Shown here one piece after another: positions 12,799 to 48,489 of a DNA stretch of 64,000 nucleotides (positions within the stretch are counted from its first letter, which is position 1; every line of letters starts with the position of its first letter). Source of the stretch: a virus (lineage: Duplodnaviria; Caudoviricetes). The stretch is taken from the IMG/VR virus record IMGVR_UViG_3300008116_000002; one strand, given 5' to 3'. The notes beneath the pieces are model-generated. The model ran no database searches and was not told the DNA's origin. It saw only the letters and a list, made by a program, of their open reading frames with translations. The position numbers and the translations under genes were made by a program.

Positions 12799-12852
12799 TA
12801 GGCATCATTTTTTAATAATAAATAATTTAAGTAACATTAAAAGGAAATAAAA

Positions 12853-15098: not shown

Positions 15099-18002
15099 AT
15101 GGCAGATCTAAAATTATCTGATTTACTTGCCGCGACCGCTATATCTGAAGATACCTTCATTTATGGTATTCAAAACGGCATAAGTAAAAAGATTGGTTCA
15201 AATGTTTTATTCCAAAATCTAACCGACCCTATTCTTAAAGGTAGGGTCGTTTTAGATGGTGTGCAATTAATTAAGGGAACCGATACTAATCAAACTATTA
15301 GTGTAACTAAATCAAGAACTGAATTTAGTACAGGTTCTCTTGTGATGTACCCTAGTCTGCCAGAACCTTCTATTGATGGCGTTATTAAAATTCTAACCTT
15401 GGCAAATACGCAAGGTGGCAGAGTTGAAATAACTACAGCAAATTCTAGAATATTTCCTAATGTCTCAATTACTATGGATAAGCGTGGCGAGAGCCTTATG
15501 CTTATCTATAGTAGTAATTCTTATTCTAATGGCTGGGTTATCTTAGGAACAACACCTGGTCTGAAAACAAGTTTAGAATTACCTGAAGCAAATATTAGTG
15601 ATCAAAGAATTCGTAGAGCTATTAGTGCGGGCAACGAAACTATAATTTATGATGAAGCTAACGGTAAAATTCGCATAGGCGATCTTTCTAATACTGTAGC
15701 GCAAATTAGTTTAGCCAATGTAACAACTGACGATTTACGTGAAGGTAACATCAACTTATACTTCACAAATAATAGAGCAGTAACTGCTCTAATTCCGGAT
15801 TTAAATCAACTTAGAAAACCTAACGCAAATGTAATATACGTTTCAGTAAATGGTGATGACCGTTTAGACGGTTTAACAATGCCGAATGCTATTGCAAATA
15901 TTCATGTTGCATTAAGTAGAGTTAACGCATATTGGACTGTTAAAGTTTTCCCAGGCGTTTATACGTTATATGGAAATCCTGTTACTATTCCAAGAAAAGT
16001 TTCTTTGATCGGTAATGATTTAAGAACTTGTGATATCTATCCTGAGAATCAAACCGAAGACATGTTCTATATGAACAACGGAGCATATGTCAATGGGTTT
16101 ACATTCAGAGGGCATAGAGCAGCAAATCCGAATGATATTAAAAACGGATCTGCAGTATTCTCCTACAATCCCGATGGGTCTGCAGGAAATATTACAACCA
16201 GTCCATATATTCAGAATTGTTCGTCTATTACCACTACCGGCACTGGCGTAAGAGTAAATGGTAATTACGTGGGCGGACTACGTTCAATGGTTCTTGATGC
16301 CTATACGCAGTTTAATCAGGGTGGCATAGGTGTACACCTGTTGAACAAGGGATATATGCAGTTAGTATCTCTATTCACAATTTGCTGCGAATATTCCGTT
16401 CTTGCAGAACATGGTGGTTTTGGTTCCATTACTAACTCTAATAGCTCATTTGGTAATTTTGGTTTAGTTGCAGATGGTGCAAGTGAAACTTTATATTCTG
16501 CAAAAATAATTAGGCAAATTTCAAGTAGAGCAGTTGAAATAGAAACAACAGTTAAGCCAAATATTCAAGATAGATTATTAATGGCTAACTATAATCAAGA
16601 AAAATGTTTTAGAGACACTGGTCTAATTGTAGATTCCTTAGCGTTAGATTTAGCATATCAATCAAATACTCAGTCAAGATTCGCAGGATTACAGTACTGG
16701 GCACAGAGCGTATCTAAAGTATTAGATCAAAAAAATGAAGTTTCATCTACACTTAGATATCTAAAGACCTTAGCTACGAACGTAGTAATTAACAGTACTA
16801 ACTGGGATAATGCTGCCAATGTACCTTTTCAGGGAACAAATACACAAGTTATTTTGGGCGCCGCTCCCGGCGATGGCAACACTTCTAATTTGGTTGCAGG
16901 TGCGTTTGATTTATTTTTAGATGTTTATGAAAATGGTTTATTTGGCGTTACTGACAGGATAATACCTAATTCATATCCCGCAAATTCAAATCCAGTCATT
17001 CAAAATACTGCAAATTTACTTATTGCAAATAAGAACTTCATGCAGTCTGAAGCGCAGGCATTTTTGACAACAAATTTTCCATACGCGACATATATTCCCG
17101 GAACAAGTATGTTCCTAGATGCGGGTAAACTTATAGATGCTATAACTTTTGATGTTTTACATGGCGGTAATAGACAAACTATTACCAGGGCAATATTATA
17201 TTATGATTATATACAGGATTCAACCGCAGTTAGAAATCAAAGGGTTCAAACCAGCGGAGCTTTCTCCTTTATTAAAACCTTTATAGACGATATTCTAACT
17301 CTAACGCCTATTGCAAATACTTATCAAACTACTTATACTCAAAATACTACTATAGGTAATGCAGTAACCAGTAGCGAAGTTTTATATGTAAGAAATAGGA
17401 TTGATGACATAACAAATATTATTGATAACGGTCCTGATTATGAAAATGTTCAATATAATATTGAACCGATCTCGCTTACCGCAAATACTAACCCCAATGT
17501 AGTTCTCGCCACTCAGATTATTCTGGCAAACAGAGATTTTATTAGAGCAGAAGTACTTGAGTATGTAAATCAAAATTGGAAAGATTTAAGTAATGGTACA
17601 AGAAACTTCTATACAGTAAACGAATCAACTGACGTATCTTCTAACCTTTGCATTGTTACTTTTGATGAGAAAATTCTTGCCGTAGATAGACCTTTGGCAA
17701 ATAATAGAATTAGTTTTTATCAGGGAAGTTACATATCAGGTTCTAGTCATACTTTTGAATATGTAGGTGCGGGAACTCAATTATTGCCTGCCTTACCAAT
17801 GAATGGCGGCATACCTGTACAAGACCATGAAGTTGTTGAAACTCGTGGAGGTTCAGTATACTATACAAGTACAGACCATAAGGGTGATTTTAGAATTGGT
17901 AACGAACTACTAATTAATAGAGCAACTGGTACGATCAACGGTAGAACATTTAATAAGAGCTTGTTCGCGGTTATGACCCCGTACATTTTGGCATTACAAT
18001 AA
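15099..18002 (+). CDS. large tail/virion structural protein with beta-helix-like region
   Basis: 967 aa; YVSVNGDD, SPYIQNCSSI, C-terminal STDHKGDFRIG...MTPYILAL; paralog of 25591. Confidence 0.65.
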   Translation: MADLKLSDLLAATAISEDTFIYGIQNGISKKIGSNVLFQNLTDPILKGRVVLDGVQLIKGTDTNQTISVTKSRTEFSTGSLVMYPSLPEPSIDGVIKILTLANTQGGRVEITTANSRIFPNVSITMDKRGESLMLIYSSNSYSNGWVILGTTPGLKTSLELPEANISDQRIRRAISAGNETIIYDEANGKIRIGDLSNTVAQISLANVTTDDLREGNINLYFTNNRAVTALIPDLNQLRKPNANVIYVSVNGDDRLDGLTMPNAIANIHVALSRVNAYWTVKVFPGVYTLYGNPVTIPRKVSLIGNDLRTCDIYPENQTEDMFYMNNGAYVNGFTFRGHRAANPNDIKNGSAVFSYNPDGSAGNITTSPYIQNCSSITTTGTGVRVNGNYVGGLRSMVLDAYTQFNQGGIGVHLLNKGYMQLVSLFTICCEYSVLAEHGGFGSITNSNSSFGNFGLVADGASETLYSAKIIRQISSRAVEIETTVKPNIQDRLLMANYNQEKCFRDTGLIVDSLALDLAYQSNTQSRFAGLQYWAQSVSKVLDQKNEVSSTLRYLKTLATNVVINSTNWDNAANVPFQGTNTQVILGAAPGDGNTSNLVAGAFDLFLDVYENGLFGVTDRIIPNSYPANSNPVIQNTANLLIANKNFMQSEAQAFLTTNFPYATYIPGTSMFLDAGKLIDAITFDVLHGGNRQTITRAILYYDYIQDSTAVRNQRVQTSGAFSFIKTFIDDILTLTPIANTYQTTYTQNTTIGNAVTSSEVLYVRNRIDDITNIIDNGPDYENVQYNIEPISLTANTNPNVVLATQIILANRDFIRAEVLEYVNQNWKDLSNGTRNFYTVNESTDVSSNLCIVTFDEKILAVDRPLANNRISFYQGSYISGSSHTFEYVGAGTQLLPALPMNGGIPVQDHEVVETRGGSVYYTSTDHKGDFRIGNELLINRATGTINGRTFNKSLFAVMTPYILALQ

Positions 18003-18012
18003 AGGATTAAAA

Positions 18013-18375
18013 ATGGCAACGTTAGTTCCCTTAAATACTTTTAAAACAATTGCGGCAAATATTACTACGAATCAAACATTACTCTATACTACTCCTGAAG
18101 AAGTCGCAACAATTATTCTTACAGCTCAGGTAAGTAATACGGGAAGCGCCGACGCTAATGTTACATTTATTCATAGATCCAATGTATTAGTAGGTGGCAC
18201 TAGAGTAATTACTGATACAGAATTGGTTAAAGATTTTGACATCCCTACAAAAGATGCATCATCAGTTATTGTAGGTAAAATTGTTTTAGAAGAAAATCAG
18301 GCAGTTCTGGTTAGAGGTAGCGCAAATGCTACTCTAAAAATTCTTTTAAGCTTGTTAGAAACTTCATTAGTATAA
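18013..18375 (+). CDS. small beta-rich structural protein
   Basis: LLYTTP...IILTAQVSN...KIVLEENQ; paralog of 29743 and 61657. Confidence 0.6.
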
Positions 18376-18379
18376 AAAA

Positions 18380-20149
18380 ATGTCCTTAAAAAGTCTAAGC
18401 GGAAGAGTAAGGGTAAAAAACCCGGCAAGTGCGGATCCGGCACGATATAGCTATTTAAACGTAGAAAATGCGGAACCTAATTTAGGGTTACCGGATGCAG
18501 ATGGCTACATTTTAAAGGGTGATGTAAACGGAAGACGATATTGGACTGCAGGTGCTGCCAACGTAAGACCTTCTCTTAGATATGACTACATTGCAAGCGA
18601 AGGGCAAAATGTTTTTAGTAATACTACCGTAAGTTTAACAGGTAGATCTTTATTCTTTGCAAATACAGATGTAGTTTTAGTTCATATCAACGGGGTATTA
18701 CTTTCTCCAACTGGTAATGTTCTTTTAGGTGCAGAACAGATACCTGACTACACCTTGGGCGATAGTTCTATAACATTGTCCGAAGCTGCATCCGCAGGCG
18801 ATATTGTTACAATTATGCCTGTTCTTGGTGGGTCTAGTGGAGATCGAGGACCAGCTGGACCAACAGGCCCGCAGGGTGCTACGGGTGCAACTCTTTTAGT
18901 TGGTGGACCTACAGGTGCAACCGGAGTTCGAGGAGCAACAGGTGCCACTGGTGCAACAGGACCTACGGGACCGCAAGGCTCTACAGGATTAGGTGCCACA
19001 GGCGCAACAGGGCCAACCGGTCCGACGGGACCTACGGGGCCTACAGGCCCCGCAGCAGCGACAGGTGCAGAAGGTTCGACCGGAGCCACAGGCCCAACCG
19101 GTGCTACGGGAATTGGTGCAACAGGTCCAACAGGTGCCACGGGTGCGACAGGTCCTAGCGGCCCATCGGGATTTATAGGACCATCTGGGCCTTCGGGTCC
19201 TACAGGATCTACAGGTTCGACCGGAGCCACCGGACCTACGGGACCAACAGGGCCTTCGGGACCAACAGGACCATCTGGACCCACTGGCCCATCGGGATTT
19301 ATCGGACCTACCGGACCAAGCGGACCTACCGGACCTAGTGGGCCGACGGGACCAACAGGGCCTTCGGGACCAACCGGACCAAGCGGACCTACGGGAGTCT
19401 CGGGGCCTAGTGGCCCTTCAGGGCCTTCCGGACCTAGTGGAGCAAGAGGACTTCAAGGACTTCAAGGAATACAAGGAATACAAGGATTGCAAGGAAATCC
19501 TGGCTCCCAAGGTATTCAAGGGCCAACAGGACCTACTGGGCCCACTGGGCTTACTCCCGCAATAGGCGGATCGACTACGCATATACAGTACAATAACAAC
19601 GGATCCCTATCCGGAGATTCAAACTTAACATGGACGGCTAGCGGATCAGGTAGAAATTTAATAGTTGGTGGATCAGATGGCACAGCAAATCATGGAATAG
19701 TTTCTAGATTCTTTAATTTCAATTCTTCCGGCACGACGATATATTATAACGTCGCATCGACTTGGATTTCTTTTGATATTGCAAGTGGGCAAAAATTCCG
19801 AATCGCAAACAACGGAGACGTAACTGCGGCGGGTGACGTTATTGCGTATGGTGTATCTGATATTAGACTAAAGAATAATATTAAGGTTATAGACAAGGCG
19901 TTAAATAAAGTATTACAGCTAGAAGGTATAACTTATAATTGGAACAATATTGCTGCTGAAAAAATAGAAAAATCTACAACAGAAAGAGAATCTGGTATTA
20001 TTGCACAACAAGTTAAAGAAGTTTTGCCTGAGGCTGTTTCTGAAAGAGCAGATGGTTATTTAGGAGTACGTTACGAAAAACTAATACCTCTTTTAGTTCA
20101 AGCAATTAAGGAGTTGAAGGAAGAAGTAGAAGAACTTAAAAATCGTTAA
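18380..20149 (+). CDS. collagen-like tail fibre with C-terminal intramolecular chaperone (peptidase S74)
   Basis: Long Gly-X-Y tract; SDIRLKNNI...GIIAQQV...[16 protein letters not shown]. Confidence 0.85.
18839..19556 (+). repeat. collagen Gly-X-Y repeat (GPT/GAT/GPS-rich, ending in GIQ/GLQ)
   Basis: Translated triplets visible directly. Confidence 0.95.
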
Positions 20150-20167
20150 TTTTATTGAAAGTATATT

Positions 20168-21853
20168 ATGAGATTTCATATTTTGGGAATACCTCATACG
20201 GTAACATCTAAAGAATATAATGCCTGCGCATATACGCAAAAGGTTGTTAAATTTGGTAAGATGATGACACAGAGAGGGCATACTGTTATTCATTATGGGC
20301 ATGAAGATTCTGATCTTATTTGTTCTGAACACGTTAGTGTAATTACAAACAAAGATTTAGAAATTGCATATGGTAATTATGATTGGAGAAAAAACTTTTT
20401 TAAGTTTGACGTAAATGATCATGCTTATCAAACATTCTACAAAAATGCAATTGCTGAAGTAGGTAAAAGAAAGCAAAAGAATGATTTTATTTTACCTTTT
20501 TGGGGGCATGGTGTAAGACCTATTTGCGACGCTCATCAGCATGATATGATTGTAGTTGAGCCAGGTATAGGATACGCCGGCGGACATTGGGCAAGATGGA
20601 AAGTATTTGAATCCTATTCTATAATGCACGCATTTTATGGAATGCAGGGAGTCGGGCATTGTCAGTCTGATTGGTATGATGTAGTTATACCAAATTACTT
20701 TGACGAAGAAGATTTTATTTATTCTGAGGAAAAAGAAGATTATATTTTGTTTTTGAGCAGGGTGTACGAAGGCAAGGGTATTCATATTGCAGTACAAGCA
20801 GCACAAGCAGCGGGAGTTAAGTTAATTGTTGCAGGTCAAAATCCAGACAATCTTCAATTCCCTGATAATGTTACTTACGTTGGTTATGCAGATGTAGAAA
20901 CAAGAAAAAGATTGATGGCAAAAGCCAAAGGATTAATTGTAGCATCGTTGTATATGGAACCATTTGGTGGTGTGCAAATAGAAAGTTTATTATCCGGAAC
21001 ACCGACTATTACTACAGATTGGGGCGCATTTACAGAAAATAATATACAAGGTGTTACTGGATATAGATGCAGAACATTTGCAGATTTTGTAAACGCAATG
21101 AAAAATGTGGACAAAATCAAATCATCGGATTGTAGAAAACAAGGGGAAAGATTTTTACTTCAGAATGTTGCCCCAATGTATGAGAAGTATTTTCAAGATG
21201 TGCTAAATGTATATACCGGAAAAGGCTGGTATGAAATTAAAAAGAAAAAGGAACCAAAAAAAATTTTTATAGACTGCGGAACACATATGTTCCAAGGATT
21301 TGAGAAACACAGATTAAATTTAAACATAGATAATAAATGGGTAATACATGGGTTTGAAGCTAATCCATATGTTTACGAAGCAGCAAAAGATTTAAGAAAA
21401 AATTACATATCTGAAGGTTTAAATTTTAATCATCATAATCTAGCGGTAGGAACTAAAACTAAATCATCCACAGTTAATTGTGCTTGGGCAGGATATTTGG
21501 GAGGGTTTTTGCACGTTGGATCCAACACGTTAAAAAATCCTCCAGCAGTTGATACAGTTTTTGGTGAGAATTTTGATTATGTGGAAAAAAGAATACATGA
21601 AATTAATTTTTCAGACTTTGTTAAAAACATATGTGATGACGAAGATTATTCAATTTTAAAAATGGATATTGAGGGTTCGGAATTTGAGGTTTTGGATCAT
21701 ATGATATTAACGGGCGCTATTAAATTATTCAAAGAGGTTTATATAGAATTTCATCAAAGATTTTTTGATAATCCCTCTTTTTATGAACAAAAAATTCTAA
21801 AGTATAAAGAATTTTTTAAAGAAAATAATATAATTCTAAGGGAAGATGGATAA
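20168..21853 (+). CDS. GT4-type glycosyltransferase fused to FkbM-family methyltransferase
   Basis: N-part: LFLSRVYEGKG, YMEPFGGVQIESLLSGTP; C-part: FIDCGTH, GFEANP, LKMDIEGSEF. Confidence 0.85.
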   Translation: MRFHILGIPHTVTSKEYNACAYTQKVVKFGKMMTQRGHTVIHYGHEDSDLICSEHVSVITNKDLEIAYGNYDWRKNFFKFDVNDHAYQTFYKNAIAEVGKRKQKNDFILPFWGHGVRPICDAHQHDMIVVEPGIGYAGGHWARWKVFESYSIMHAFYGMQGVGHCQSDWYDVVIPNYFDEEDFIYSEEKEDYILFLSRVYEGKGIHIAVQAAQAAGVKLIVAGQNPDNLQFPDNVTYVGYADVETRKRLMAKAKGLIVASLYMEPFGGVQIESLLSGTPTITTDWGAFTENNIQGVTGYRCRTFADFVNAMKNVDKIKSSDCRKQGERFLLQNVAPMYEKYFQDVLNVYTGKGWYEIKKKKEPKKIFIDCGTHMFQGFEKHRLNLNIDNKWVIHGFEANPYVYEAAKDLRKNYISEGLNFNHHNLAVGTKTKSSTVNCAWAGYLGGFLHVGSNTLKNPPAVDTVFGENFDYVEKRIHEINFSDFVKNICDDEDYSILKMDIEGSEFEVLDHMILTGAIKLFKEVYIEFHQRFFDNPSFYEQKILKYKEFFKENNIILREDG

Positions 21854-21940
21854 CAATTGAGATATAATTTTGGCGAGTAACCTATAGTAATTGAATTCTT
21901 TTTTTCATGAAATGCTATCTACTATCCAATTTTGGATTAA

Positions 21941-21948
21941 TATAAATA
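21941..21948 (+). promoter_or_regulatory. T4-type late promoter (TATAAATA)
   Basis: Exact motif followed by ATAGAG, as at 53597. Confidence 0.75.
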
Positions 21949-21972
21949 ATAGAGAAAAGTCTTGGAAAAAGA

Positions 21973-24900
21973 ATGACAAGAGCACGAGTATTTTCAAAAG
22001 GTTTGGGTGGCGGAGGCGGAGCAAATGCTAATATAAATTTAGCAGATGTCCTACCTCTTCTTACTACTGCTAATGTAATTGAGATTTTCCCAAATGTTTA
22101 CTACAGTAATGCTAGAGTATTTGCAAATATTAATCTTGCAAGTCTAGATGATCTGTTTGATGTAGGAAATACTACTGGTAAGGTCGCAGGACAAGGGCTA
22201 GTTTGGAATGGAAATGTTTGGACATTTGGTAACATTTCTGCAAATTTAAGTCTATTTACTACTGACGATTTACCTCAGGGCAATACCAATTTTTACTTCT
22301 CTAATGCTCTGGCTAGACGAGCATTTACTGCAGGAACCCCTTCAATTGTAATCGACTGGAATCTAGGTACCATTTCGGCTAACCTAGAAGCAGTTGCTGC
22401 GTCTGCAAATACAACTGATACATTACCAGAAGGCGCTGTTAATCTTTACTATAGAGACTCGAGAGCGCACGCTAATTTAAAATTAGCTAGACTTTCTGAT
22501 TTAAGTGATGTATATACAAAAGGTGATATCCTACCAACAGGTCATCCTGGGGCAGGAACTCCCTTAACTCAAGTAAATACCGGATATACTTTAGTTTGGC
22601 ATGAAGAATCTAATTCATGGATTGCCGGCAGAGTAGTATCTGAAGAATCAAATGTTGCTAATTCTGCAATAGAAGCCAATACTGTATTAAGTCTTGGTAA
22701 TCTTACAACAAATGATTTAGCTGAAGGCAATGTAAATTTCTATTTTACCAATGCTCGTGTTTTAGCCAATGTAGAAAGAATGAGTATCAACGTATTGGCA
22801 GATGTCAATACTTCAGATAGTCAAGAAGGTTACATACTTACTTACATTGGATCTACTTGGGTTGCAAGATCTCTAGGTAATATCTCAAATATTGATATTG
22901 TAGTATCCACAAACTTCGCAAACACCGCAGGGTTAGCTAATGTTGCTCTAATAGCCAATACTGCAAATTTAGCTTTAGTAGCTAGTGTTGCAAACTTAGC
23001 CCTTAATACCCAATTAGCTAATTCTGCGACCTTCGCATTTACTGCAAACGTTGCGAACCTTGCGTTAGTAGCATTGACTGCTTTAACAACAAATGCGGCA
23101 ACACAGGTTCAGAATTTAAATAATTTTACTACTGCTAATTTAGCAGAAGGTGTAAATCTTTACTATACAAATGCAAGAGTTCTATCTAATGTAGAACAAA
23201 TGAGTATTAATGTATTGGCAGATGTCAATACAACAAATGTTTCCGTTGGTACAGGCATTGGCTATGTTTTAACTTGGACAGGTTCAGAATGGGCGCCTAA
23301 TGCCTTGCCCGGTGCAAGCGATACTTCAGGTTTTGCAGAAAGATCCAATGTAGCTAACGTAGCGTTGTCCGCAGTATCTACAGAAAGAGCTAATGTAGCA
23401 AATACTGTTTTAACGCTAAGTAATTTTACAACTGCGGATTTACGCGAATCTTTTAGCAATCTTTATTACACATCTCAAAGAGTACGAGATGATATTCAAA
23501 ATGCTATTCTCAATAAAGATATTGAGATAGGCGATGCAATTGTTAATGGTAATCTTAATGTTAGGGGAAATTTAACATTACTAAATAGCGATAATGTTTT
23601 AGTTAAAGCCAGAAGAATAACTTTAGCTTCACAGGCATCTGGAGTATCCCAGGCAGAAGGCGCTGGCATCTATATTGAAGGTGCCAATGTAGCATTCGCA
23701 TATAGTCAGACAAATGATGGTTGGGGTTTAGATAAAAATCTAACCATCAATGGTAACCTATTACCTGCAGTAAATGGACAATATAACTTAGGTCAACCCG
23801 GAAAGTTATGGAGAGGCGTTTATATTGGCGCCCAAACCATCTTCTTAGGCAATACCTCTATTGGTGAAAATCCAACGGGCGGATTAATCGTTCAAGATCA
23901 GTTTGGTAATCCTGCAGGAATTGATTTATCTAATATTGTTGGTACCGAATATGTTTCGATTAACAGATTAATAGGTAATACAAACCCCGAAATAGAAAAT
24001 CAAGCCTATATCGGCGGTAATGTTAAGCAATTCACATCCGGCAAGACGGGTAATATTTACTTTGGTATTTTAAAGGATGGAACTGTTAACGAATTCGCAG
24101 GTATGCGAGTTATTGAAGCCAATATTGATGGTAATGTAAGAAGTGATGTTCTATTCTACAATGATTATGAAAATAGAAATAATTCTACAATTAGATTGGG
24201 ATTATATGGTGATGGTAATATTGGTTTAACAAGTAATCTTGTTATATTCAATAACATTAATTTAATTGATAGATTTGGTAATTTTGTAGGTAACGCATTC
24301 TTAGGTACTACAGACGTAGCAATAGAAAAAGGCGGCACCGGCGCTAACACCCGACCAAATGCAAGAAGAAATCTATTCTCAGATTTCTCGGGCGGCCTTG
24401 TAGCTAAGATTGGCGGAGCAACAAATACACTTGTAGCAACATCTATTGTTGCAGGTACAGGTGTTTATGTAACGGATGGTGATGCACAGAATGGTAGTCC
24501 AACTATTGCTATTGGTCAGAACGTACATCCTACTGCATCAGTTATATTTAGTAACGTTACTGTTAATGGACAATTAAACAGCGATGACATTACTGCGGCA
24601 GTTATTACCGCAAGAACAGATTTAATTGTTCAAGGTAATTTGACAATTCGTGGTAATATTACTACAATTAATTCTACCACAGTAGTAATTGATGATAAGA
24701 ATTTAGTACTTGCGAATAATGCGATCGATGCATCGCAAGCGGATGGTGCGGGCATTACAATTAATGGTGCCAATGCTACAATTAATTACGCAAGTGGCGG
24801 CGACAAGTTTGTAGTAAATAAAGCATTAGAAGTACAAGGCAATTTAACTTTAGGTTCGTATTCTGTTACCGCAGAACAAGTTAATGTTACTGGCGATAAA

Positions 24901-25590: not shown

Positions 25591-28500
25591 ATGCAAGATT
25601 TTAGAGTAAAATCCGGACTAAGAGTCGATGGTAATGTATATGGCGTTACCAATTTAACCGTTACCTATAGCGGTTCCTTTGGTAATATTAGAGTTACCGG
25701 AGATATTGTAGGTAATGTTGTTGGCACAGTTAGTAGCTTAGCCAATCATACTACATCAAATCTTGCAGAGGGTAACAATCTATATTATACAAATGCCAGA
25801 GCATACGCTAATTTAACTTTAGCCAGTATCAATGCTCTGGCGGATGTTGATACTGTTAATGTTTCTCCGCTATTAGGATATGGATTACTTTGGGACGGTT
25901 CAAAATGGGCGCCAAACGTAATCACAGTTTCAGATACAGAATTAGCGAATGTTGCTAATAGTGTTCTTGGTATTGTACAACAATCTATTTCATCATTCCA
26001 AGCAAATGCTGCTCTCGTATCGGAAGAAGCAAACGTTGCTAATGTTGTTAGAACTTTAGCGAATTTCACTACTGCAAACTTAGCAGAAGGTACTAATCTT
26101 TACTTTACTTCTGAAAGAGTGCTAGATGCCTTAGAAGGCAATAATGTTACAGTTAATAATTTAACTGTATCTGGTGATTTAGAAGTACAAGGAAATATTG
26201 TAACTATTAATACTGCAACACTAGTTGTAGAAGATAAAAATATTCTTCTTGCGAACGGTGCAATTAATGCCGGCCAAGCTAACGGTGCAGGTATTACCAT
26301 TGCGGGTGCAAATGCATCCATTACATATGATTCAGCCAACGATCAATTTGAAACTAATAAAGATTTAGAAGTACAAGGTAATGTAAATATTGCCGCAGCA
26401 ACTGAAGCAGCAAATGGATCGACTACTGGCGCACTAACAGTTACAGGTGGCGCATATATTGCTGGTAATTTGAATGTTGCTGGTGCAATATTCTCAGAAG
26501 CAGAGCCGGTAATTAATTTAAGTGCAATGAATCAGAGCTTGGCGGTATTAAGATCGCAAGTTCTCGCACCTTCAAGTAACGTATTATATGTAAATGGCAA
26601 CGGTGATGATGCAAACGATGGTTTCTCATATGCAAACGCTCTTGCTAATATTCACACTGCATTAAATCGCGCACAACCTTGGACAACAGTTTTTGTTAAG
26701 AGCGGCGATTATGTACTTTATAATCAGCCAGTAACAATTAAGCAAAGAGTTGGTTTGGTTGGTGATAACTTAAGAACAACAACTGTTAGACCAAGTCAAG
26801 CAAACGTAGATATGTTCTACGTTGAAAACGCATCATATGTAACAGGAATTACATTTAGAGATCATATTGCACCTGCTGCAGTATTCTCATATAATCCAGA
26901 TGGTTCCGCTGGAACTATTGTAACAAGCCCGTACATCCAAAATTGCTCATCCATTACAACTACCGGTACAGGTATGCGTGTAAATGGTAATTATGTAAGC
27001 GGATTACGTTCAATGGTTTGTGATTCTTATACCAATACTAATGAAGGTGGTATAGGAATTCATATGTTGAACAGAGGCTATACTCAGTTAGTTTCTGTAT
27101 TTACTATTTGCTGTGATATTGCTGTACTTTGCGAGGATGGAGGTTTCTGTTCTATCACAAACTCCAACGCATCGTTTGGTAGATTGGGTCTATTAGCAAG
27201 AGGTGTTAGCCAGCCGCTAAACTTCGGAAAGTTCGATTCAATCGTAGATACGGATGAAGGAACCAAATATTTAATTAAGGATTTGAATTCAAGACCGAAC
27301 TATGGTGACGCAGTTCTGTTTGCCAATTACAATCAAGAAAAATGTTCTAGAGACACAGGTTTAATTGTAGATTCATTGGCATTTGATTTGGCATATCAGT
27401 CAAATACACAATCTGCTTTCTCTGGTTTACAATATTGGGCACAAGCAGAATCTGCTATTCCAAACCAGGCAGAGGAAACAATTGCCGCATTTAATTATGC
27501 TAAAGATTTAGCAACGAATGTTGCATTAAATATTACCATTACATCTCCAAGACAAGCAAATGTTACCCAAACATCTGGCACTGCTGGGGCATGGGTATCG
27601 AGAATTTCTGACGGATTTGATTTAGTTGCAAATATTATTACCGGCGGAACGATAGGTGTAACTGATAGAATTATTCCAAATGGATTCCCTGCAAATACAA
27701 ATGTAGCTGTTAATGATGCAGCCAATTTAGTTCTTCTGAACAAGTCATTTATTCAGAAAGAAGTAATTGCATTTGTTAATCAAGAATATCCAGGATTCTT
27801 TAGTAATGCAAGTAATTTTATTGATGCAGCAAATGCTGCATCAAAATGCGAAAGAGATACAGGTTACTTACTTGATAGTATAGTATTTGACTTCCTACAT
27901 AATGGTAATAGACAAGCTATTACTTCGGGTGTATATTATTATAATAATGATTTCAATACTACACAAATTGCCAATCAAATTCCGCAAACAACTGCGGCAT
28001 ATGATTTTATTGGATCCATAGTTGATGATATTGTAAGAAATAAAAAGGTTGCGGCATATAATCAAGAAAAATGTGAAAGAGATACTGGTCTAATCGTAGA
28101 TTCTCTAGCATTTGATTTAGCTTATAATAGTAATACGCAATCCAACTTCGCAGGTTTACAATACTGGTCTCAGACATCTTCGGCAATCCCTAACCAGTCT
28201 GAAGAAACTGTGGCAGCAATTAATCATGCCAAAGTATTAGCTGCAAATGTTGCACAAAATATTACTATTGCTTCTCCAAAGCAAGCTAATATTCTGCAAG
28301 TATCTGGTACAGGTGGTAGCGCACTAGAGTCAAATACAATTACTAATAATTATAACTTAATTATTGATATTATTAATAATGGAACTGTTGGTGTAACTGA
28401 TAGAATTGTTCCTAACAGATTCCCCGCTAATTCTGATGTAAATGTTAATAATGCTGCGAATTTAATTCTTTTGAATAGATCATTTATCCAGGCAGAAACA

Positions 28501-29736
28501 ATTGCGTATATAAATCAAACATACCCAGGATTCTTTGCTAACGCTAATAACTTTATTGATCCTGTAAATGCAGAAGCAAAATGTTCAAGAGACGTTGGAT
28601 TCATTTTAGATAGCGTAGCTTTTGATTTAAGACATGATGGTAATAGACAATCGATTCAATCGGGTGTGTTCTACTATAACTTCAGTGCAAACACAACTCA
28701 AATTAATGATCAGATTGTACAGACCGGCGCAGCATATAATTTTATTGGTAGTATCATAGATGAGGTTGTAAGAGGAGTTCCTGTAGCAAATGTAAGGCAA
28801 AATGTCTATACTCAAAATACTACAGCAGCGACTGCCGCAACCTTTGAAGAAGCAAACATTGTTCTGCAGAAAATTAGTTTAATTAATAATATTATTACTA
28901 GTGGGCCAAATGTTGCTCTGGCCAAAACATCATTAAGCGGAAATGTTATTACAATCTCCACAAATGTGTCAAATGCAGTTAAATTAATTTTAGCAAACAA
29001 AGATTTTATTAGAGCAGAGACAATTGAATTTGTAAATGCTACATTGTTCGATCCTCCGTATCAGTCTGTTTATAGACAAAATACTACAGCTTTCCCTGCG
29101 GCAAGTTTAACCGAAGCAAACTTAGTATTAAATAATATAGATCTAATTACAAATATTATTGAGAATGGTGCAAATGCTGCTCCTGCTAGAAGACCAATAT
29201 CTTATAGTACGTTAAGTAATGACTCAAATGTAATTAATGCAGCTAAAATTATTCTATCTAATAGAGACTTTATTGTTGCAGAAGTAAATGGATACATTAA
29301 TAGAAATTGGGCAAATATTAGTAATGGAACAGTTGCTTTCTATACAGTAGCTAACAGCACACCGCTTGTAGGAAATACTTCGTTAGTTACTTTCCTTGAG
29401 GGTGCGATAGAAGATATTACTCCGATAGCAAATTCTACAGTGAGTTTCCATCAACCAAGTTATATTTCTGCGTTGGGTTACACATTTGAATATATTGGTT
29501 CGGGCACTAATTTACAAACGGCATTACCGTATAATGGCGGATTCCCGATTCAAGAAAATGAAGTTACTGAAGAAAAAGGCGGAAGAGTTTATTTCACAAG
29601 TACAGACCAACAGGGCGACTTTAGAATTGGTACAGAACTAGTTTTCAATAGAGTAGATGGAACAATTTCAGGTAGAACATTTACCAAGGCATTGTTCTCA
29701 GTTATGACACCATATATATTAGCAGTCGAAGGATAA
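25591..29736 (+). CDS. large structural protein, paralog of 15099, with four KCxRDxG helical repeats
   Basis: 1381 aa; shares SPYIQNCSSITTTGTG and GDFRIG...MTPYILA with 15099; internal duplication of YNQEKCxRDTGLIVDSLAFDLAY. Confidence 0.65.
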   Translation: MQDFRVKSGLRVDGNVYGVTNLTVTYSGSFGNIRVTGDIVGNVVGTVSSLANHTTSNLAEGNNLYYTNARAYANLTLASINALADVDTVNVSPLLGYGLLWDGSKWAPNVITVSDTELANVANSVLGIVQQSISSFQANAALVSEEANVANVVRTLANFTTANLAEGTNLYFTSERVLDALEGNNVTVNNLTVSGDLEVQGNIVTINTATLVVEDKNILLANGAINAGQANGAGITIAGANASITYDSANDQFETNKDLEVQGNVNIAAATEAANGSTTGALTVTGGAYIAGNLNVAGAIFSEAEPVINLSAMNQSLAVLRSQVLAPSSNVLYVNGNGDDANDGFSYANALANIHTALNRAQPWTTVFVKSGDYVLYNQPVTIKQRVGLVGDNLRTTTVRPSQANVDMFYVENASYVTGITFRDHIAPAAVFSYNPDGSAGTIVTSPYIQNCSSITTTGTGMRVNGNYVSGLRSMVCDSYTNTNEGGIGIHMLNRGYTQLVSVFTICCDIAVLCEDGGFCSITNSNASFGRLGLLARGVSQPLNFGKFDSIVDTDEGTKYLIKDLNSRPNYGDAVLFANYNQEKCSRDTGLIVDSLAFDLAYQSNTQSAFSGLQYWAQAESAIPNQAEETIAAFNYAKDLATNVALNITITSPRQANVTQTSGTAGAWVSRISDGFDLVANIITGGTIGVTDRIIPNGFPANTNVAVNDAANLVLLNKSFIQKEVIAFVNQEYPGFFSNASNFIDAANAASKCERDTGYLLDSIVFDFLHNGNRQAITSGVYYYNNDFNTTQIANQIPQTTAAYDFIGSIVDDIVRNKKVAAYNQEKCERDTGLIVDSLAFDLAYNSNTQSNFAGLQYWSQTSSAIPNQSEETVAAINHAKVLAANVAQNITIASPKQANILQVSGTGGSALESNTITNNYNLIIDIINNGTVGVTDRIVPNRFPANSDVNVNNAANLILLNRSFIQAETIAYINQTYPGFFANANNFIDPVNAEAKCSRDVGFILDSVAFDLRHDGNRQSIQSGVFYYNFSANTTQINDQIVQTGAAYNFIGSIIDEVVRGVPVANVRQNVYTQNTTAATAATFEEANIVLQKISLINNIITSGPNVALAKTSLSGNVITISTNVSNAVKLILANKDFIRAETIEFVNATLFDPPYQSVYRQNTTAFPAASLTEANLVLNNIDLITNIIENGANAAPARRPISYSTLSNDSNVINAAKIILSNRDFIVAEVNGYINRNWANISNGTVAFYTVANSTPLVGNTSLVTFLEGAIEDITPIANSTVSFHQPSYISALGYTFEYIGSGTNLQTALPYNGGFPIQENEVTEEKGGRVYFTSTDQQGDFRIGTELVFNRVDGTISGRTFTKALFSVMTPYILAVEG

Positions 29737-29742
29737 AATCAA

Positions 29743-30084
29743 ATGGCAACCGCATTAAACGTATTCAGAACAGTTACAGCAGACCTTACAACCGAAGATA
29801 AGTTGTTATATACTGCACCAAGCAGAAAAACATCTATTTTCCTTTCGGTTCAGGCTACTAATCTAACTAATAATACTGTTCAAGTATCTTTTTATCATGG
29901 ATCAACTGCAAATGTAAAGACTGCTCTTGCTAAAAACTTCAAAATTCCAACAGGCGATTCTATGGCAGTTATCAGCGCGGGTGCTAAGTTGGTGTTAGAA
30001 ACAGGACAAAAAGTATATTCAAGCGCAAGCGCAAACAATTCAGTTCAATTAGTAATGAGCGTACTAGAATCAGCAAATGACTAA
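29743..30084 (+). CDS. small beta-rich structural protein
   Basis: MATALNVFRTV...LLYTAP...KLVLETGQ; paralog of 18013. Confidence 0.6.
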   Translation: MATALNVFRTVTADLTTEDKLLYTAPSRKTSIFLSVQATNLTNNTVQVSFYHGSTANVKTALAKNFKIPTGDSMAVISAGAKLVLETGQKVYSSASANNSVQLVMSVLESAND

Positions 30085-34928: not shown

Positions 34929-38170
<3,242 letters not shown>

Positions 38171-38171
<1 letters not shown>

Positions 38172-39241
38172 TGGCTCTTTTAAATGACGGAGAAATTAGT
38201 CTAGGTGGTAGTTCTACAGGTAGATCTATAAATTTAGAATTAAGCAAATTACCCGCAGCCATAGTTAGTCTTAATGATTCGGATGTACGAAGTCTAGCCG
38301 GCATTCTATCCGGCACTATTTCCCTAGAAAATTTTTACGGTAAATCTGTCTACATATATGGGCAGGAAGAATTTACCTCGGCTGGAACCTACACCTGGGT
38401 TTGTCCAGAAGGAGTTACCGCAGTATCTGTTTTATGCATAGGCGGTGGCGGCGGCGGTGATGCAGGTTCTGATCTTATTGGCGTAGGTGGAGGCGGCGGT
38501 GGCGGCGGTCTTGCCTACAGAAATAATATTTCCGTTATACCAGGACAAAGCTATACCATAGTTGTAGGTGCAGGCGGATTCGGTCAGATTACAGTGAATA
38601 GAGTAACTACACAAGTAAGTACAGATGGTGGACAATCTAGCGCATTTTCCTGCATTGCGACGGGCGGGGCAAAAGGTGCCAGAACTGCTGCCACAGTCGT
38701 AATTGGTTCAACCGCGGATGGCGATGGTGGGGGAAGATCGGGAGTATTTAATGGTGGGGCATCAGGCGGAGTAGGTGGTTCAATCGACACTTCCGTTTTA
38801 GGATTTAGAGGACCTGGGGGTGGCGGAGCTGCAGGTTATACTGGCACAGGAGGCTATGGCGCACGTGGTCAAAGGGCATCTGGCACACCAACTTCTGCTG
38901 CAGGATTTGCTGGAGGACCAGGAGCAGGTGGCGGCGCAGGCGGTGGAGGCTCAGCTTTTAGAAGCGATGTTGTTAGAGTAGCCACCGGAGCAGGTGGAGG
39001 TGGTGTAGGAATTTATGGCGCAGGTCCCAATGGCGCAGGTGGCACGGGTGGTTCCTCAACCGTAGCTGCGGTGGATGGTGGTGATGGTTCAAGTGGTTCT
39101 TTTGGCTATTATGGTGCAGGTGGAGGTGGAGGAGTAGGTGGAGATTCTAGATCAGCACAGGACGGAAAAAACGGTGCGGTAAGAATTATTTGGCCTGGTC
39201 AATTAAGAGCATTCCCACAAACAATTACAGAAAATGTATAA
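38171..39241 (+). CDS. glycine-rich fibre-tip/adhesin-like protein (gp38-like arrangement)
   Basis: Overlaps the fibre stop; N-terminal GEISL...SLAG..SGTISLENFYGKS adaptor-like segment, then many poly-Gly runs. Confidence 0.6.
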
Positions 39242-40823
39242 AGAATATATTGTTAGCTTAAATCGAGGTGTGGATTACGACGCTTTCTGGAATCAAATAG
39301 AAAACGAGAGCGAAAACGATTCCTTTGTACCATCTAGACGAGTAGAAATAATTAATAATAGAGATGGTAGCTCACGTAGTTGCCATTATTCTTTAACAGA
39401 TGAAGAAGCGGCAAACTTAAAAAATGATTCTAGAGTTTATTCGGTTGAAATTCCCCCTGATCAAAGAGACGATGTAAAAATTGGTCTAAGAGCTTTTCAG
39501 GTAGGAGACTTTTCAAAAGGAAATTCTTCTTCGGGTGACAGAAGAAACTGGGGATTAAAAAGGATAAACGAAGCAACAAATGTCTATGGCACAGGTAATA
39601 CTGCAAATGATATTTACAAGTATATCTTAGATGGCACAGGCGTAGATGTAGTTATACAAGATAGCGGTATTGAAGTTGCTCATCCTGAATTTAAAGATGA
39701 TGCGGGCAGCTCAAGAGTACAACAAATAAATTGGTATACTGAAAGTGGCTTAGGTGGAACACAGAATGCAAATCATTACAGAGATTTTGATGGCCATGGA
39801 ACTCACGTAGCAGGAATTGTTGCAGGCAAAACTTTTGGTTGGGCAAAAAATGCAAGAATATATTCCCTGAAGGTTAATGGTCTTGAGGGAGCAGGCGATA
39901 CTAACACAGGTATTTCCATTACAGATTGCTTTGATGTAATTAAACTTTGGCATAGAAGAAAACCAATAGATCCTAAAACAGGATTTAGAAGACCAACCAT
40001 TGTTAATATGAGTTGGGGATATAGTTTAACATATTCAAGTGTATCATCTGTAACCTATAGAGGAACAACTTACACTGACGGAAGTACTACAGGAGATGCT
40101 GCATACCGCTGGACAAATTATGGCTTAGTTAATTTGACCAGTGGAGGAAACTTTGTAACTAATTTTAGATTGGGTTCTGTTGATACAGATATACAAGAAT
40201 TAATAGATGAGGGAATACATGTTGTAATTGCGGGTGGAAATAATTATCATAAAATAGATGTACCATCAGGAGTAGATTATAATAATAGTTTTGTAACTGG
40301 TGGTTCCACATATGAATATCATAGGGGGTCTAGTCCGTATGATGATGAGGCATTAAAGGTTGGAAATATTGATACCATCACTTTTAACGCAGTACAAGAC
40401 CAAAAAGCACATTCAAGTGAAACAGGGCCAGGTATAGATATTTGGGCACCGGGTGCAAACGTAGTAAGTGCAACAAGTAACATTAATGAATATAGCAATG
40501 TTTCATATAATTTAGATTCAGGTTTTAAGCAAATTAATTTAAGCGGTACATCTATGGCAGCCCCGCAGGTATGCGGAGTAGGCGCACTTGTTTTACAATT
40601 AAATCCAGGATTAACCCCTGCAAATTTAAAGAACTGGTTTGTTACAAAAGCAGTAAGTAATTCGGTTATATATACTTCGAATGTCAACAATGATTACACT
40701 AATACAAGATCGTTGTTAGGCGGAAATAATAGATTTTTATATAATCCATTTGGTATAGAATCAGATTGTAATTTAGTTGGTCCTGTAACCATTACCAATG
40801 GAGCATTTACTTTAGAAAAATAA
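39234..40823 (+). CDS. subtilisin-like serine protease (S8)
   Basis: Catalytic motifs VVIQDSG, HGTHVAG, GTSMAAP; N-terminal propeptide-like region. Confidence 0.92.
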   Translation: MYKEYIVSLNRGVDYDAFWNQIENESENDSFVPSRRVEIINNRDGSSRSCHYSLTDEEAANLKNDSRVYSVEIPPDQRDDVKIGLRAFQVGDFSKGNSSSGDRRNWGLKRINEATNVYGTGNTANDIYKYILDGTGVDVVIQDSGIEVAHPEFKDDAGSSRVQQINWYTESGLGGTQNANHYRDFDGHGTHVAGIVAGKTFGWAKNARIYSLKVNGLEGAGDTNTGISITDCFDVIKLWHRRKPIDPKTGFRRPTIVNMSWGYSLTYSSVSSVTYRGTTYTDGSTTGDAAYRWTNYGLVNLTSGGNFVTNFRLGSVDTDIQELIDEGIHVVIAGGNNYHKIDVPSGVDYNNSFVTGGSTYEYHRGSSPYDDEALKVGNIDTITFNAVQDQKAHSSETGPGIDIWAPGANVVSATSNINEYSNVSYNLDSGFKQINLSGTSMAAPQVCGVGALVLQLNPGLTPANLKNWFVTKAVSNSVIYTSNVNNDYTNTRSLLGGNNRFLYNPFGIESDCNLVGPVTITNGAFTLEK

Positions 40824-43906: not shown

Positions 43907-44074
43907 ATGACGATAGAACAAGAAAGAGCGTTTAACGATTGGTGGAATAAGTACTATAAATCTTCCAGCGATATACAAATAAAAGAAGCTGCAAAAGAAG
44001 CTTGGATTGCGGCAGTAGAATACTCAGAAAATAAAAGTGATAGAAATTTTAGATGGGATGGTATTATTAAATGA
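43907..44074 (+). CDS. small hypothetical protein (55 aa, not in ORF track)
   Basis: MTIEQERAFNDWWNKYY...; fills the gap and overlaps thyX start by ATGA. Confidence 0.55.
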   Translation: MTIEQERAFNDWWNKYYKSSSDIQIKEAAKEAWIAAVEYSENKSDRNFRWDGIIK

Positions 44075-44739
44075 AAGTAAATTTGATTAGCTATTCCGAA
44101 CCTGCAGGAACAATGCCGGCGGATATTGATAACATGCAAGACTTGGTGGCATATTGTGCAAGAGTTTCAAATCCATCAAACCAACTTAATACGGAAACTT
44201 CTGAAAAATTAATCAGATATCTAATTAAAAATCAGCACTGGTCTCCATTGGAAATGGTGAGTGTTTGTCTTGAGATAATAACCACACGAGATATTGCTAG
44301 ACAAATGCTTAGACACAGAAGTTTTAGTTTTCAAGAGTTTAGCCAAAGATATGCAGACCCCGTACAGGAGTTAGAATTTGTAACTCGTGAAGCAAGATTG
44401 CAGGATACGAAAAATCGTCAGAACAGCATAGAGATGAATTTTTCTAATACTGAACATAGAGAAATCTCAAGGCTCTGGCAAGAAAAACAACAAGAAATTA
44501 TCAGATTGGCCAAGGAAAATTACGTTTGGGCCATAAATAATGGTATAGCTAAAGAACAGGCCAGGGCTGTTCTGCCCGAAGGCCTTACTACTAGCCGACT
44601 GTATATGTCCGGAACTCTACGGAGCTGGATACATTATATACAACTTAGGTCGGAAAACGGAACACAAAAAGAACACGCGGAAATAGCAAAGGCTTGTGCC
44701 GAAGTCATTTCCTCTATTTTCCCAATGATTAAAGAGTAA
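44071..44739 (+). CDS. thyX: flavin-dependent thymidylate synthase
   Basis: HWSPLE, RHRSFSFQEFSQRY ThyX motif, TQKEH. Confidence 0.95.
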   Translation: MKVNLISYSEPAGTMPADIDNMQDLVAYCARVSNPSNQLNTETSEKLIRYLIKNQHWSPLEMVSVCLEIITTRDIARQMLRHRSFSFQEFSQRYADPVQELEFVTREARLQDTKNRQNSIEMNFSNTEHREISRLWQEKQQEIIRLAKENYVWAINNGIAKEQARAVLPEGLTTSRLYMSGTLRSWIHYIQLRSENGTQKEHAEIAKACAEVISSIFPMIKE

Positions 44740-44745
44740 ACTATT

Positions 44746-45207
44746 ATGTGGATACTTAATTTCTTACCCGATTCTTTTCTGGTACTTGTAGTACATGCAA
44801 TCACGCTGTTAGGTATTATTGGTCTTACCGTCGGATTTTTCCTAGGGTTTATACCATTAATCAGAACATATTCTAAAACAATTAAAATCGCAAGCACGGT
44901 TATTCTTCTAGCAGGTGTTTATCTGCAAGGGGGTCTTGATACTGAAATGGAATGGAGACAACGTGTTGCTGAGATGGAAGAAAAAGTTAAAGTTGTAGAA
45001 AAGAAAGTCGAAGTAACAAACACTAAAATTAAAACTAAAATTGTAACAGTCAATAAACTTATTGAGAAAAAGGGACAAAAGACTGTAGAATATATCGATA
45101 GAGAAGTTGTAAAGTATGATAACAGTTGCGTCATTCCAAAAGAATTTGTAAGAGCTGTTAATGACGCTGCAGCAAAAGTAGACGTAAAAGAAGGAGAAGG
45201 ACAATGA
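44746..45207 (+). CDS. putative inner-membrane spanin (Rz-like)
   Basis: N-terminal TM helices then periplasmic coiled coil with one Cys; followed by a lipoprotein. Confidence 0.55.
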   Translation: MWILNFLPDSFLVLVVHAITLLGIIGLTVGFFLGFIPLIRTYSKTIKIASTVILLAGVYLQGGLDTEMEWRQRVAEMEEKVKVVEKKVEVTNTKIKTKIVTVNKLIEKKGQKTVEYIDREVVKYDNSCVIPKEFVRAVNDAAAKVDVKEGEGQ

Positions 45208-45470
45208 ACAAAATTTTTCTATTTTTAACTTCTCTGTTTCTGGTTGGTTGCTCAACCACAGTACCTGTAGTTATGAAGTTCCCCGCAGCACCCGAAGAAC
45301 TAAGACAACCGTGTCAGGATTTATCTGTCTTGAATGAGGAAGCAAAACTTAGTGATGTAGCGAAATCAGTTTCTTCAAATTATACACTTTATCATAAATG
45401 TGCAAGCAAAGTAGATCTATGGAATGAATGGTATACTGAACAAAAGAAAAATTTCGAATCTTTAAAATAA
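45204..45470 (+). CDS. putative outer-membrane spanin lipoprotein (Rz1-like)
   Basis: Signal peptide with lipobox LVGC; Pro-rich PVVMKFPAAPEELRQPC. Confidence 0.6.
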   Translation: MNKIFLFLTSLFLVGCSTTVPVVMKFPAAPEELRQPCQDLSVLNEEAKLSDVAKSVSSNYTLYHKCASKVDLWNEWYTEQKKNFESLK

Positions 45471-45488
45471 TAATAACCGGAGTAAAGA

Positions 45489-47288: not shown

Positions 47289-47289
47289 A

Positions 47290-47928
47290 ATGAAAGGCAC
47301 CATAGCCTTATTTTTAAATCATCCAAAGTGTTCTGTACAATCAGGCAATGGTATTATCAAGGCATTAGATCCTTATTATCATTTTAAGATTTTTACAAAG
47401 CATGATATAGAAAGTAAATTCTTTGATGATGTGGATATGGTTTGCTTTCCTGGGGGAGTCGGTGACATGACTTCCTTCTCGTCTATGCATCCTGAGACAA
47501 AGAAACTAGTTAGAAACTATGTTAGACGAGGCGGAAAGTATCTTGGTATTTGCATGGGTGCCTATTGGGCAGATTCAAAGTTTTTTAATATTCTTGATGA
47601 TGTGAGAGTGGTACAATATATTAAACAACCCAATGTAAATACCAGGAGACCTCATGCAAAGGCAATGCCGGTAACATGGCGAGGTGTTGAAGATAAAATA
47701 TTCTTTTTTGATGGTTGTACCTACGTAGGAAATAAGTTTAAAACCATTGCTAAGTATGAAACAGGCCACCCAATGGCTATTATACAAAACAATGTTGGTC
47801 TAATAGCATGTCATCTTGAAAGTGAAAAATATTGGTATGATGATTATTCTTGGATGCCGAAACACTGGCATAATTACAGACATCAAAAATTATTAGTTGA
47901 TTTTGTAGATACACTATACAGGAGTTAG
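47290..47928 (+). CDS. class I glutamine amidotransferase-like (BPL_N-type) protein
   Basis: FPGG oxyanion strand, YLGICMGAY nucleophile elbow, CHLE His-x-Glu. Confidence 0.75.
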   Translation: MKGTIALFLNHPKCSVQSGNGIIKALDPYYHFKIFTKHDIESKFFDDVDMVCFPGGVGDMTSFSSMHPETKKLVRNYVRRGGKYLGICMGAYWADSKFFNILDDVRVVQYIKQPNVNTRRPHAKAMPVTWRGVEDKIFFFDGCTYVGNKFKTIAKYETGHPMAIIQNNVGLIACHLESEKYWYDDYSWMPKHWHNYRHQKLLVDFVDTLYRS

Positions 47929-47929
47929 A

Positions 47930-48118: not shown

Positions 48119-48123
48119 CATGA

Positions 48124-48450: not shown

Positions 48451-48489
48451 GAAACGGAAAAATCTCATGTTAGAACCATAATCTAAAGG

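Follow-up and report, generated by a model that had tools for sequence, protein, structure and literature searches.

The glycan carried by the collagen-like protein BclA of Bacillus anthracis and Bacillus cereus includes methylated sugars. Among phages, virion glycosylation is, to our knowledge, documented for mycobacteriophages only, whose enzymes reportedly glycosylate the virion at the C-termini of capsid and tail-tube proteins (the work of Freeman et al. in Cell Host Microbe, 2023). Prokaryotic collagen-like proteins are mostly unmodified, according to reviews (PMC8968730), and the system that is, by analogy, functionally closest to the one described here is SgtA-BclA3 of Clostridioides difficile, in which SgtA adds N-acetylglucosamine to Thr of the BclA3 collagen repeats, as shown in vitro on peptides (PMC7157674). 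Two further virus enzymes invite comparison: A064R of the chlorovirus PBCV-1, a glycosyltransferase (GT)-GT-methyltransferase that builds the glycan of the capsid protein and then methylates its terminal sugar, and L230 of mimivirus, a collagen lysyl hydroxylase-glucosyltransferase that glycosylates viral collagen-like proteins (PMC9614988). Here we analyse a stretch of 64,000 nucleotides (the window) from a T4-like freshwater phage (Duplodnaviria; Caudoviricetes; IMG/VR record IMGVR_UViG_3300008116_000002), found in freshwater and lake metagenomes, in which the gene of a collagen-like tail fibre (18380-20149) is followed by that of an enzyme (20168-21853) joining a GT to an FkbM-family methyltransferase. 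The phage's own fibre is probably the substrate of this enzyme, which would O-glycosylate Thr and Ser in the collagen repeats and methylate the attached sugar, a reading drawn from sequence and gene arrangement; the main new result is that its GT family is linked to collagen genes across bacterial phyla as well as in phages.

In gene arrangement the locus resembles its counterpart in C. difficile, where the glycosyltransferase gene likewise adjoins a co-oriented gene for a Thr-rich collagen-like protein, a pattern that recurs in 51 of the loci compared here. The two are analogues only: SgtA, the single collagen-Thr glycosyltransferase characterised so far, is a GT-A enzyme with TPR (PMC7157674), whereas the phage enzyme belongs to GT-B/GT4, is without TPR and is not homologous, and BclA3 sits on the spore coat rather than on a phage tail fibre, with the fusion of methyltransferase to transferase confined to the phage side. 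The original prediction had reasoned from BclA, and the analogy holds for function but does not extend to the type of enzyme. Phage glycosyltransferases encoded in or next to structural genes reportedly also modify virion proteins in mycobacteriophages; those systems differ in hosts and phage types, in reported targets other than collagen repeats and in having no known methyltransferase fusion. A064R, like the phage fusion, unites glycosyltransferase and S-adenosylmethionine (SAM)-dependent methyltransferase in one virus polypeptide, but its first domain is GT-A, its methyltransferase is of class I, not of the FkbM family, and its glycan is N-linked on the capsid of a eukaryotic virus. L230 acts on hydroxylysine, whereas the collagens considered here have almost no Lys at Y and the window is without a hydroxylase.

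The interval 18380-21853 consists of exactly two co-oriented open reading frames (ORFs). The fibre begins with a non-collagen part (residues 1-150), continues with a Gly-X-Y region of about 240 residues (approximately 151-392) and ends in a C-terminal part with an S74 domain; it matches Pfam Collagen (PF01391; E 1.3e-30, 105 bits against a cut-off of 27.2), Pfam Peptidase_S74 (PF13884; residues 493-553, E 7.3e-17, 61.8 bits against a cut-off of 22) and many tail-fibre PHROGs. Its long unbroken Gly-X-Y runs, scoring above cut-off, are those of a predicted collagen triple-helix repeat protein, and with the motif SDIRLK present in the S74 domain its C-terminus is a predicted intramolecular chaperone bearing the Ser...Lys autocleavage motif. 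Motifs of this type have an autocleavage role as in endosialidase chaperones. Counted in runs of at least six triplets only, the repeat comprises 72 Gly-X-Y triplets with Thr at 38 and Ser at 17 of the Y positions (76%) and Pro at 41 of the X positions, which gives each chain about 55 Thr/Ser hydroxyls at Y, where neither Lys nor Pro ever occurs. By the same count a second fibre (34929-38171), which is a possible second substrate of the enzyme, totals 112 triplets, 83 of them with Thr at Y (74%), so the predicted prevalence of Thr and Ser at Y is borne out for both fibres. As an observation on the repeat itself, contigs of three freshwater RNA-library runs diverge from the window at 18960 and rejoin it at 19121 with other collagen-coding letters; this mid-repeat portion appears to be swapped in co-occurring strains as a hypervariable segment of the shaft.

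Past a gap of 18 nt, and likewise on the + strand, the second ORF encodes 561 amino acids in which Pfam recognises both domains, in agreement with the predicted GT4-FkbM fusion directly after the first collagen fibre. Its N-terminal domain matches Glycos_transf_1 (residues 185-307, 54.9 bits against a cut-off of 26.4), Glyco_trans_1_4 (47 against 27) and, over residues 1-358, phrog_3408 ('glycosyltransferase', E 7e-194). An AlphaFold2 model of these residues (pLDDT 94.4) has a compact GT-B fold of two Rossmann domains, with which Foldseek returned at least 500 GT-B matches and TM scores of 0.77-0.81 to the glucosylsucrose synthase Tll1591 (8x3q/7fga). The EX7E motif, E264-E272 (EPFGGVQIE), is intact and lines up with that of TeGSS; in a set of 48 diverse family members K203, G204 and E272 are invariant and R198 and E264 at least 90% conserved, K203, G204 and R198 being the predicted phosphate-binding residues of the donor site. 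The domain is thus predicted to be a GT4/GT-B enzyme of the retaining type, and one that is soluble, as the protein has no hydrophobic segment (hydropathy maximum KD19 1.36). Since no NCBIfam model reaches its cut-off on the enzyme, the GT domain represents an uncharacterised GT4 subfamily, and a literature search found no paper on this subfamily or on its coupling to collagen genes. The FkbM domain scores 54.0 bits with Pfam Methyltransf_21/FkbM (cut-off 22.7) and 31.3 with NCBIfam TIGR01444 (cut-off 37.7). It carries the Gly-rich SAM loop (DCGTHMFQG) and the D-x-E-G-x-E strand (LKMDIEGSEF), with G20, D149, E151 and G152 invariant in the FkbM alignment (A4); its AlphaFold2 model (pLDDT 86) matches only one PDB entry at E<=0.001, 2py6, an FkbM structure that is itself uncharacterised (TM 0.44 over 159 columns).

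Fold and profile searches of the PDB place the GT domain nearest to Tll1591, tetrahydrobiopterin glucosyltransferases, AviGT4, BshA and MshA, a company of generic soluble GT4 enzymes from which the acceptor is not identifiable. The best profile match, to the cyanobacterial glucosylsucrose synthase, reaches E 3.5e-39 at about 21% identity and is best in the donor-binding half. Tll1591 (7fg9, 8x3q) and the tetrahydrobiopterin glucosyltransferases (5ze7, 9v0l) share with the phage domain the build of a compact soluble GT4 of retaining type, of about 350 amino acids, and the same EX7E region, but stand apart in their low identity (about 21%), their small-molecule acceptors and the absence of any known collagen context. 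The GT4 protein O-GlcNAc transferase GtfA (5e9t) also appears in the list of fold matches.

The acceptor is better approached through the company that the gene family keeps in bacteria. A GT-domain profile was run against one genome per prokaryotic species and gave 80 loci, 62 of them with enough flank, and 36 of the 62 have, no more than 400 nt away and in the same orientation, a collagen-like ORF of 12-142 triplets. On a FastTree phylogeny of 162 GT domains, the clade uniting Bacillota, Chitinophaga, Cyclobacteriaceae, Chloroflexota and Beijerinckiaceae holds 34 loci with an adjacent collagen gene, 8 without and 8 that are uninformative (34/42). In the five module-bearing genomes surveyed (3.2-11.3 Mb) collagen genes number about 1-5 per genome, which puts chance adjacency at the order of 0.04-0.25% per genome; Anaeromicropila herbilytica, whose 5.1-Mb genome is complete, has one collagen gene in all, and it adjoins the GT. 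Pfam upholds the collagen calls in three bacterial loci. As the modules are flanked by genes such as those for seryl-tRNA synthetase and a TonB-dependent receptor, they are chromosomal and not only of prophage origin. Two-gene collagen-GT modules in ordinary chromosomal settings can be seen, for instance, in loci L144 (7057-9137), L151 (4382-7367) and L126 (8001-10457).

Phages were compared through 80 IMG/VR loci and two isolates, with a collagen-like gene counted as adjacent when it lay no more than 400 nt from the GT. Fifteen phage loci, including the window, have such a gene, nearly always upstream and on the same strand, and by their unrelated non-collagen parts the partners form at least six groups (S-CAM7 gp015-gp016; L005-9; L016/17/27/28; L021/L041/window; L022; L046/75). 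Because the 51 collagen partners from phage and bacterial loci together fall into 18 groups by their non-collagen parts, the repeat is all that they have in common. In 45 of these 51 loci the collagen gene precedes the GT. With a median share of Thr at Y of 0.57-0.62 and Lys at Y close to zero, Thr and Ser are the only abundant acceptors at that position. It is conceivable, at chances which we would put somewhat below even, that this GT4 subfamily is a dedicated Thr/Ser O-glycosyltransferase of collagen repeats, the first of GT-B type, serving surface and spore collagens in at least five bacterial phyla and the fibres of many aquatic phages, usually with a methyltransferase that caps the sugar. 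In Synechococcus phage S-CAM7 the order is collagen gene (gp015), GT (gp016), a second GT-like gene (gp017), 2OG-Fe(II) oxygenase and tail fibre. The oxygenase, lying after the GT or GT pair and before the tail fibre gene, is found in S-CAM7 (gp018; L001 13978-14574) and ACG-2014f (L002 13073-13666); it follows the GT by one or two genes and may be a second tailoring step of the prolyl-hydroxylase type, one that the window lacks.

The family is large and its partners varied. A word-indexed search gave 5099 hits, with 900 clusters at 50% identity and E<=1e-30; the protein encoded at 20168-21853 occurs in identical form on 21 contigs, the longest of 213 kb, and its GT domain is 71-75% identical to those of S-CAM7 and ACG-2014f (both Synechococcus phages of the Kyanoviridae). 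A megablast of 17000-23000 against phage genomes returned zero matches. Members may consist of the GT alone (about 360-380 amino acids), of GT with FkbM (about 570), of GT with a class I methyltransferase (about 552) or of GT with two methyltransferases (about 740), and longer forms include GT2, GT25 or GT32 domains or sulfotransferases. Across the family, methyltransferases of at least six Pfam families are fused or adjacent to the GT, as are GT2/GT25/GT32 domains and sulfotransferases; where the GT is unfused, an FkbM or class I methyltransferase lies downstream, often accompanied by a second transferase of about 300 amino acids. This constant association of GT and methyltransferase points to a methylated glycan as the product, and it is on this recurrence of fusion and adjacency that the methylated glycan of the original prediction now leans.

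Several observations weigh against a collagen acceptor. Thr-rich Y positions are normal in prokaryotic collagens whether glycosylated or not (Thr at Y amounts to 48% among Gram-positives and to 32% across bacteria as a whole; PMC8968730), and are therefore by themselves no sign of glycosylation; for the same reason the share of Thr/Ser at Y was dropped as a discriminator. The closest solved structures (glucosylsucrose synthase, tetrahydrobiopterin glucosyltransferase, BshA, MshA) take small-molecule acceptors. In the clade of Stellaceae, Mycobacterium and other Actinomycetota just one of 15 informative loci is collagen-adjacent, and this clade, where the GT stands alone among unrelated metabolic genes, is the bacterial one nearest to the phage clade on the tree. 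Within the phage clade itself, window included, 16 loci have an adjacent collagen gene and 3 a near one, while 41 have none within their flanks and 30 are uninformative. The window's nearest relative (L003/L004; 77% identity, 222-kb genome) encodes the GT fusion with no collagen gene beside it, its sole collagen gene lying about 15 kb from the GT if the genome is circularly permuted, and in a marine lineage of 50-70 kb phages the GT is fixed behind the small terminase gene with the collagen genes about 40 kb away. Finally, in T4-like aquatic phages the fibre block is a known hot spot of unrelated genes, glycosyltransferases among them (PMC7029224), which makes adjacency in such a block weaker evidence than adjacency on a bacterial chromosome.

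Two of these cases merit description in their own right. The marine lineage comprises L065 (8573-13050) and 50 further loci (L180-L234), with genomes that CheckV rates 94-100% complete; an Sf6-type small terminase gene stands directly before the GT, which is followed by a class I methyltransferase-like protein missed by Pfam (LDIGGGP motif), MazG and a dCMP deaminase. In the Stellaceae and in Actinomycetota including Mycobacterium (L105, 7989-9173; L106, 7968-9173), a GT homologue 50-56% identical stands solitary among genes of lipid and central metabolism, with a wax ester synthase, an esterase, PrpD and an MFS transporter among their products, and its acceptor there is probably a molecule other than collagen.

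A role of the enzyme in modifying the phage's own fibre is thus strongly and independently backed by adjacency in many bacteria and several phage lineages and by partners that share only the repeat, while the link is not universal, failing in the nearest relative, the marine lineage and one bacterial clade. The co-occurrence of GT and collagen that had been expected across phages likewise emerges in part, in the 15 adjacent loci and in the nine of nine sizeable GT-bearing phage records that encode collagen genes, a proportion without a base rate for comparison, since every small-terminase relative of the marine lineage with enough downstream DNA carries the GT and so no control set lacking it is available; against it stand the 41 phage-clade loci with no collagen in their flanks.

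The small-molecule acceptors of the nearest structures raise the alternative of an auxiliary metabolic function, in which the product of the enzyme would be a soluble methylated glycoside such as a pterin glycoside or a compatible solute. Glucosylsucrose synthase and tetrahydrobiopterin glucosyltransferases are its best PDB matches, and the stand-alone bacterial clade (clade B) suggests non-protein acceptors for some family members. We rate this as improbable: the identity is only about 21% and strongest in the half that binds the donor, no pterin or sugar-metabolism genes lie nearby, and both the collagen coupling and the bacterial modules would go unexplained. A narrower pterin-glycoside or cyanopterin-like reading, suggested by the BGluT matches, was retained only as a minor rival in view of the low identity and the unexplained collagen coupling.

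The nearest relative prompts another thought, namely that the collagen gene is a mere neighbour and that the proteins which the enzyme glycosylates and methylates lie elsewhere in the virion, for instance in the giant non-collagen fibres whose genes come just downstream or in head or tail. In L003/L004 homologues of the window's 1204-aa and 1468-aa fibres come after the GT fusion; the GT lies next to non-collagen fibre-like genes in L038, L042, L055, L069 and L082; and mycobacteriophage glycosyltransferases reportedly modify capsid and tail proteins (work cited in PMC12801897). We consider this unlikely, as it leaves unexplained both the two-gene collagen-GT modules of bacteria and the fact that the partners resemble one another in the repeat only.

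No greater chance attaches to a role in remodelling a glycan of the host envelope (lipopolysaccharide (LPS) O-chain, capsule or S-layer glycan), which would block superinfection or the re-adsorption of progeny to debris. It is the usual published reading of glycosyltransferases in the fibre regions of cyanophages and pelagimyophages, although a speculative one in both sources (PMC7029224, PMC12801897). GT4 enzymes are common in LPS and polysaccharide synthesis, with PimA, WaaG-like and PglA among the structure matches, and the fusion partners of the family include GT25 'LPS biosynthesis' and capsule-synthesis domains. The enzyme, however, has no membrane segment, its gene belongs to a late structural operon rather than to the early genes, and the bacterial homologues examined lie outside polysaccharide clusters, either in collagen modules or by themselves.

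Least probable, and by our estimate very much so, is that the phage DNA is the acceptor, with the enzyme adding or extending sugars on its modified bases. The idea arises from phages DLP3 and RL38J1, whose DNA arabinosyl and glucosyl transferases are GT4-like enzymes with the same nearest PDB folds (PMC13326640). Here the gene lies in a late fibre block and its product has no membrane segment; its neighbours are fibre genes, with thyX and the ribonucleotide reductase genes 22-27 kb downstream, and within the window it has no linkage to genes for modifiable bases (hydroxymethylcytosine (hmC), 5-hydroxycytosine (5hoC) or hydroxymethyluracil (hmU) synthase, deazaguanine). The bacterial collagen modules speak against a DNA acceptor as well.

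The transcriptional layout of the region is summarised with its other features in Table 1. The gap between the two genes contains no late-promoter motif, and no terminator was called on the + strand between 17059 and 24036; in the absence of either element between them, the enzyme is most likely produced late together with the fibre. The nearest intergenic motif of this kind upstream of the pair is AATAAATA at 12817. The window contains six exact copies of TATAAATA, every one on the + strand; five precede an ORF start by 25-34 nt, and the copy at 21941, between the enzyme gene and the next fibre gene, is predicted to open another late transcription unit. Parts of the region are matched at >=99% identity by contigs from four metatranscriptome studies of freshwater, and one RNA-library contig (20109-20279) spans the junction of fibre and enzyme genes; with DNA carry-over possible, with contigs giving neither strand nor transcript ends and with gaps in their coverage carrying no information, these offer weak backing for joint transcription.

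Table 1. Coordinates of the features discussed, in positions of the window.
Feature	Position	Strand	Basis
Late-promoter-like AATAAATA, 36 nt before ORF 12853	12817..12824	+	Motif match
Collagen-like tail fibre, 589 aa, proposed substrate	18380..20149	+	Pfam Collagen and Peptidase_S74, tail-fibre PHROGs, triplet counts
Gly-X-Y repeat region of this fibre	18830..19555	+	GPT, GAT and GPS triplets
Gap between fibre stop and enzyme start, 18 nt	20150..20167	+	ORF coordinates
Glycosyltransferase domain, aa 1-358	20168..21241	+	Pfam, PHROG, invariant columns, AlphaFold2 model, Foldseek, motif and hydropathy
FkbM-family SAM-dependent methyltransferase domain, aa 369-536	21272..21775	+	Pfam PF05050, alignments, AlphaFold2 model
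T4-type late-promoter motif TATAAATA, 32 nt before next fibre gene (21973)	21941..21948	+	Exact motif match
Second collagen-like fibre, 1080 aa, S74 chaperone, possible second substrate	34929..38171	+	Pfam, triplet counts

The enzyme stands out in its surroundings as the sole non-structural gene at 14-39 kb, just as had been claimed: the other ORFs of this block match tail-fibre or structural PHROGs or are small unknowns, none with a Pfam enzyme domain, and the next enzyme is a subtilase at 39234-40823, beyond the block. Behind the second collagen fibre, over 38171-40823, come a Gly_rich_2 protein (356 aa) and next this subtilase (Peptidase_S8, E 1.8e-36), whose start overlaps the preceding stop; a secreted-type protease closing a fibre block is unusual. 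Elsewhere in the block the same two-gene module appears twice (15099-18375 and 25591-30084), each time a large fibre of the same family (967 aa and 1381 aa; phrog_17885/5342) followed directly by a phrog_1276 protein of about 115 aa. Homologues of both proteins flank the GT in IMG/VR loci L019 and L037, and the module may be a fibre with its assembly factor. After the structural block, 44071-49532 encodes ThyX, two ribonucleotide reductase subunits and a biotin-protein-ligase-N-like protein, with neither a sugar-nucleotide gene nor a hydroxylase gene in that interval.

In the mechanism that we infer, the 561-aa protein would be a cytoplasmic tailoring enzyme, expressed late, for the phage's own collagen-like fibre. 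Its GT4 domain would move a sugar from a nucleotide sugar to the hydroxyls of Thr and Ser at the Y positions of Gly-X-Y, probably on unfolded chains ahead of triple-helix closure; the FkbM domain would next O-methylate that sugar, using SAM, and the fibre would end up with short, methyl-capped O-glycans along its shaft. Stability, camouflage and adhesion, the purposes named in the original prediction, would be putative benefits of such a shaft.

With one enzyme family tied genomically to collagen repeats in bacteria and in phages alike, a two-gene test becomes possible. Should the proposal prove true, glycosylated and methyl-capped collagen fibres would be common and overlooked in the virions of aquatic phages, given more than 5000 homologues in metagenomes, and it would alter how the numerous 'LPS-type' glycosyltransferases encoded among the fibre genes of marine and freshwater phages are read. 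It would then bear on fibre stability, host recognition and antigenicity, and on the making of stable recombinant collagens without hydroxyproline.

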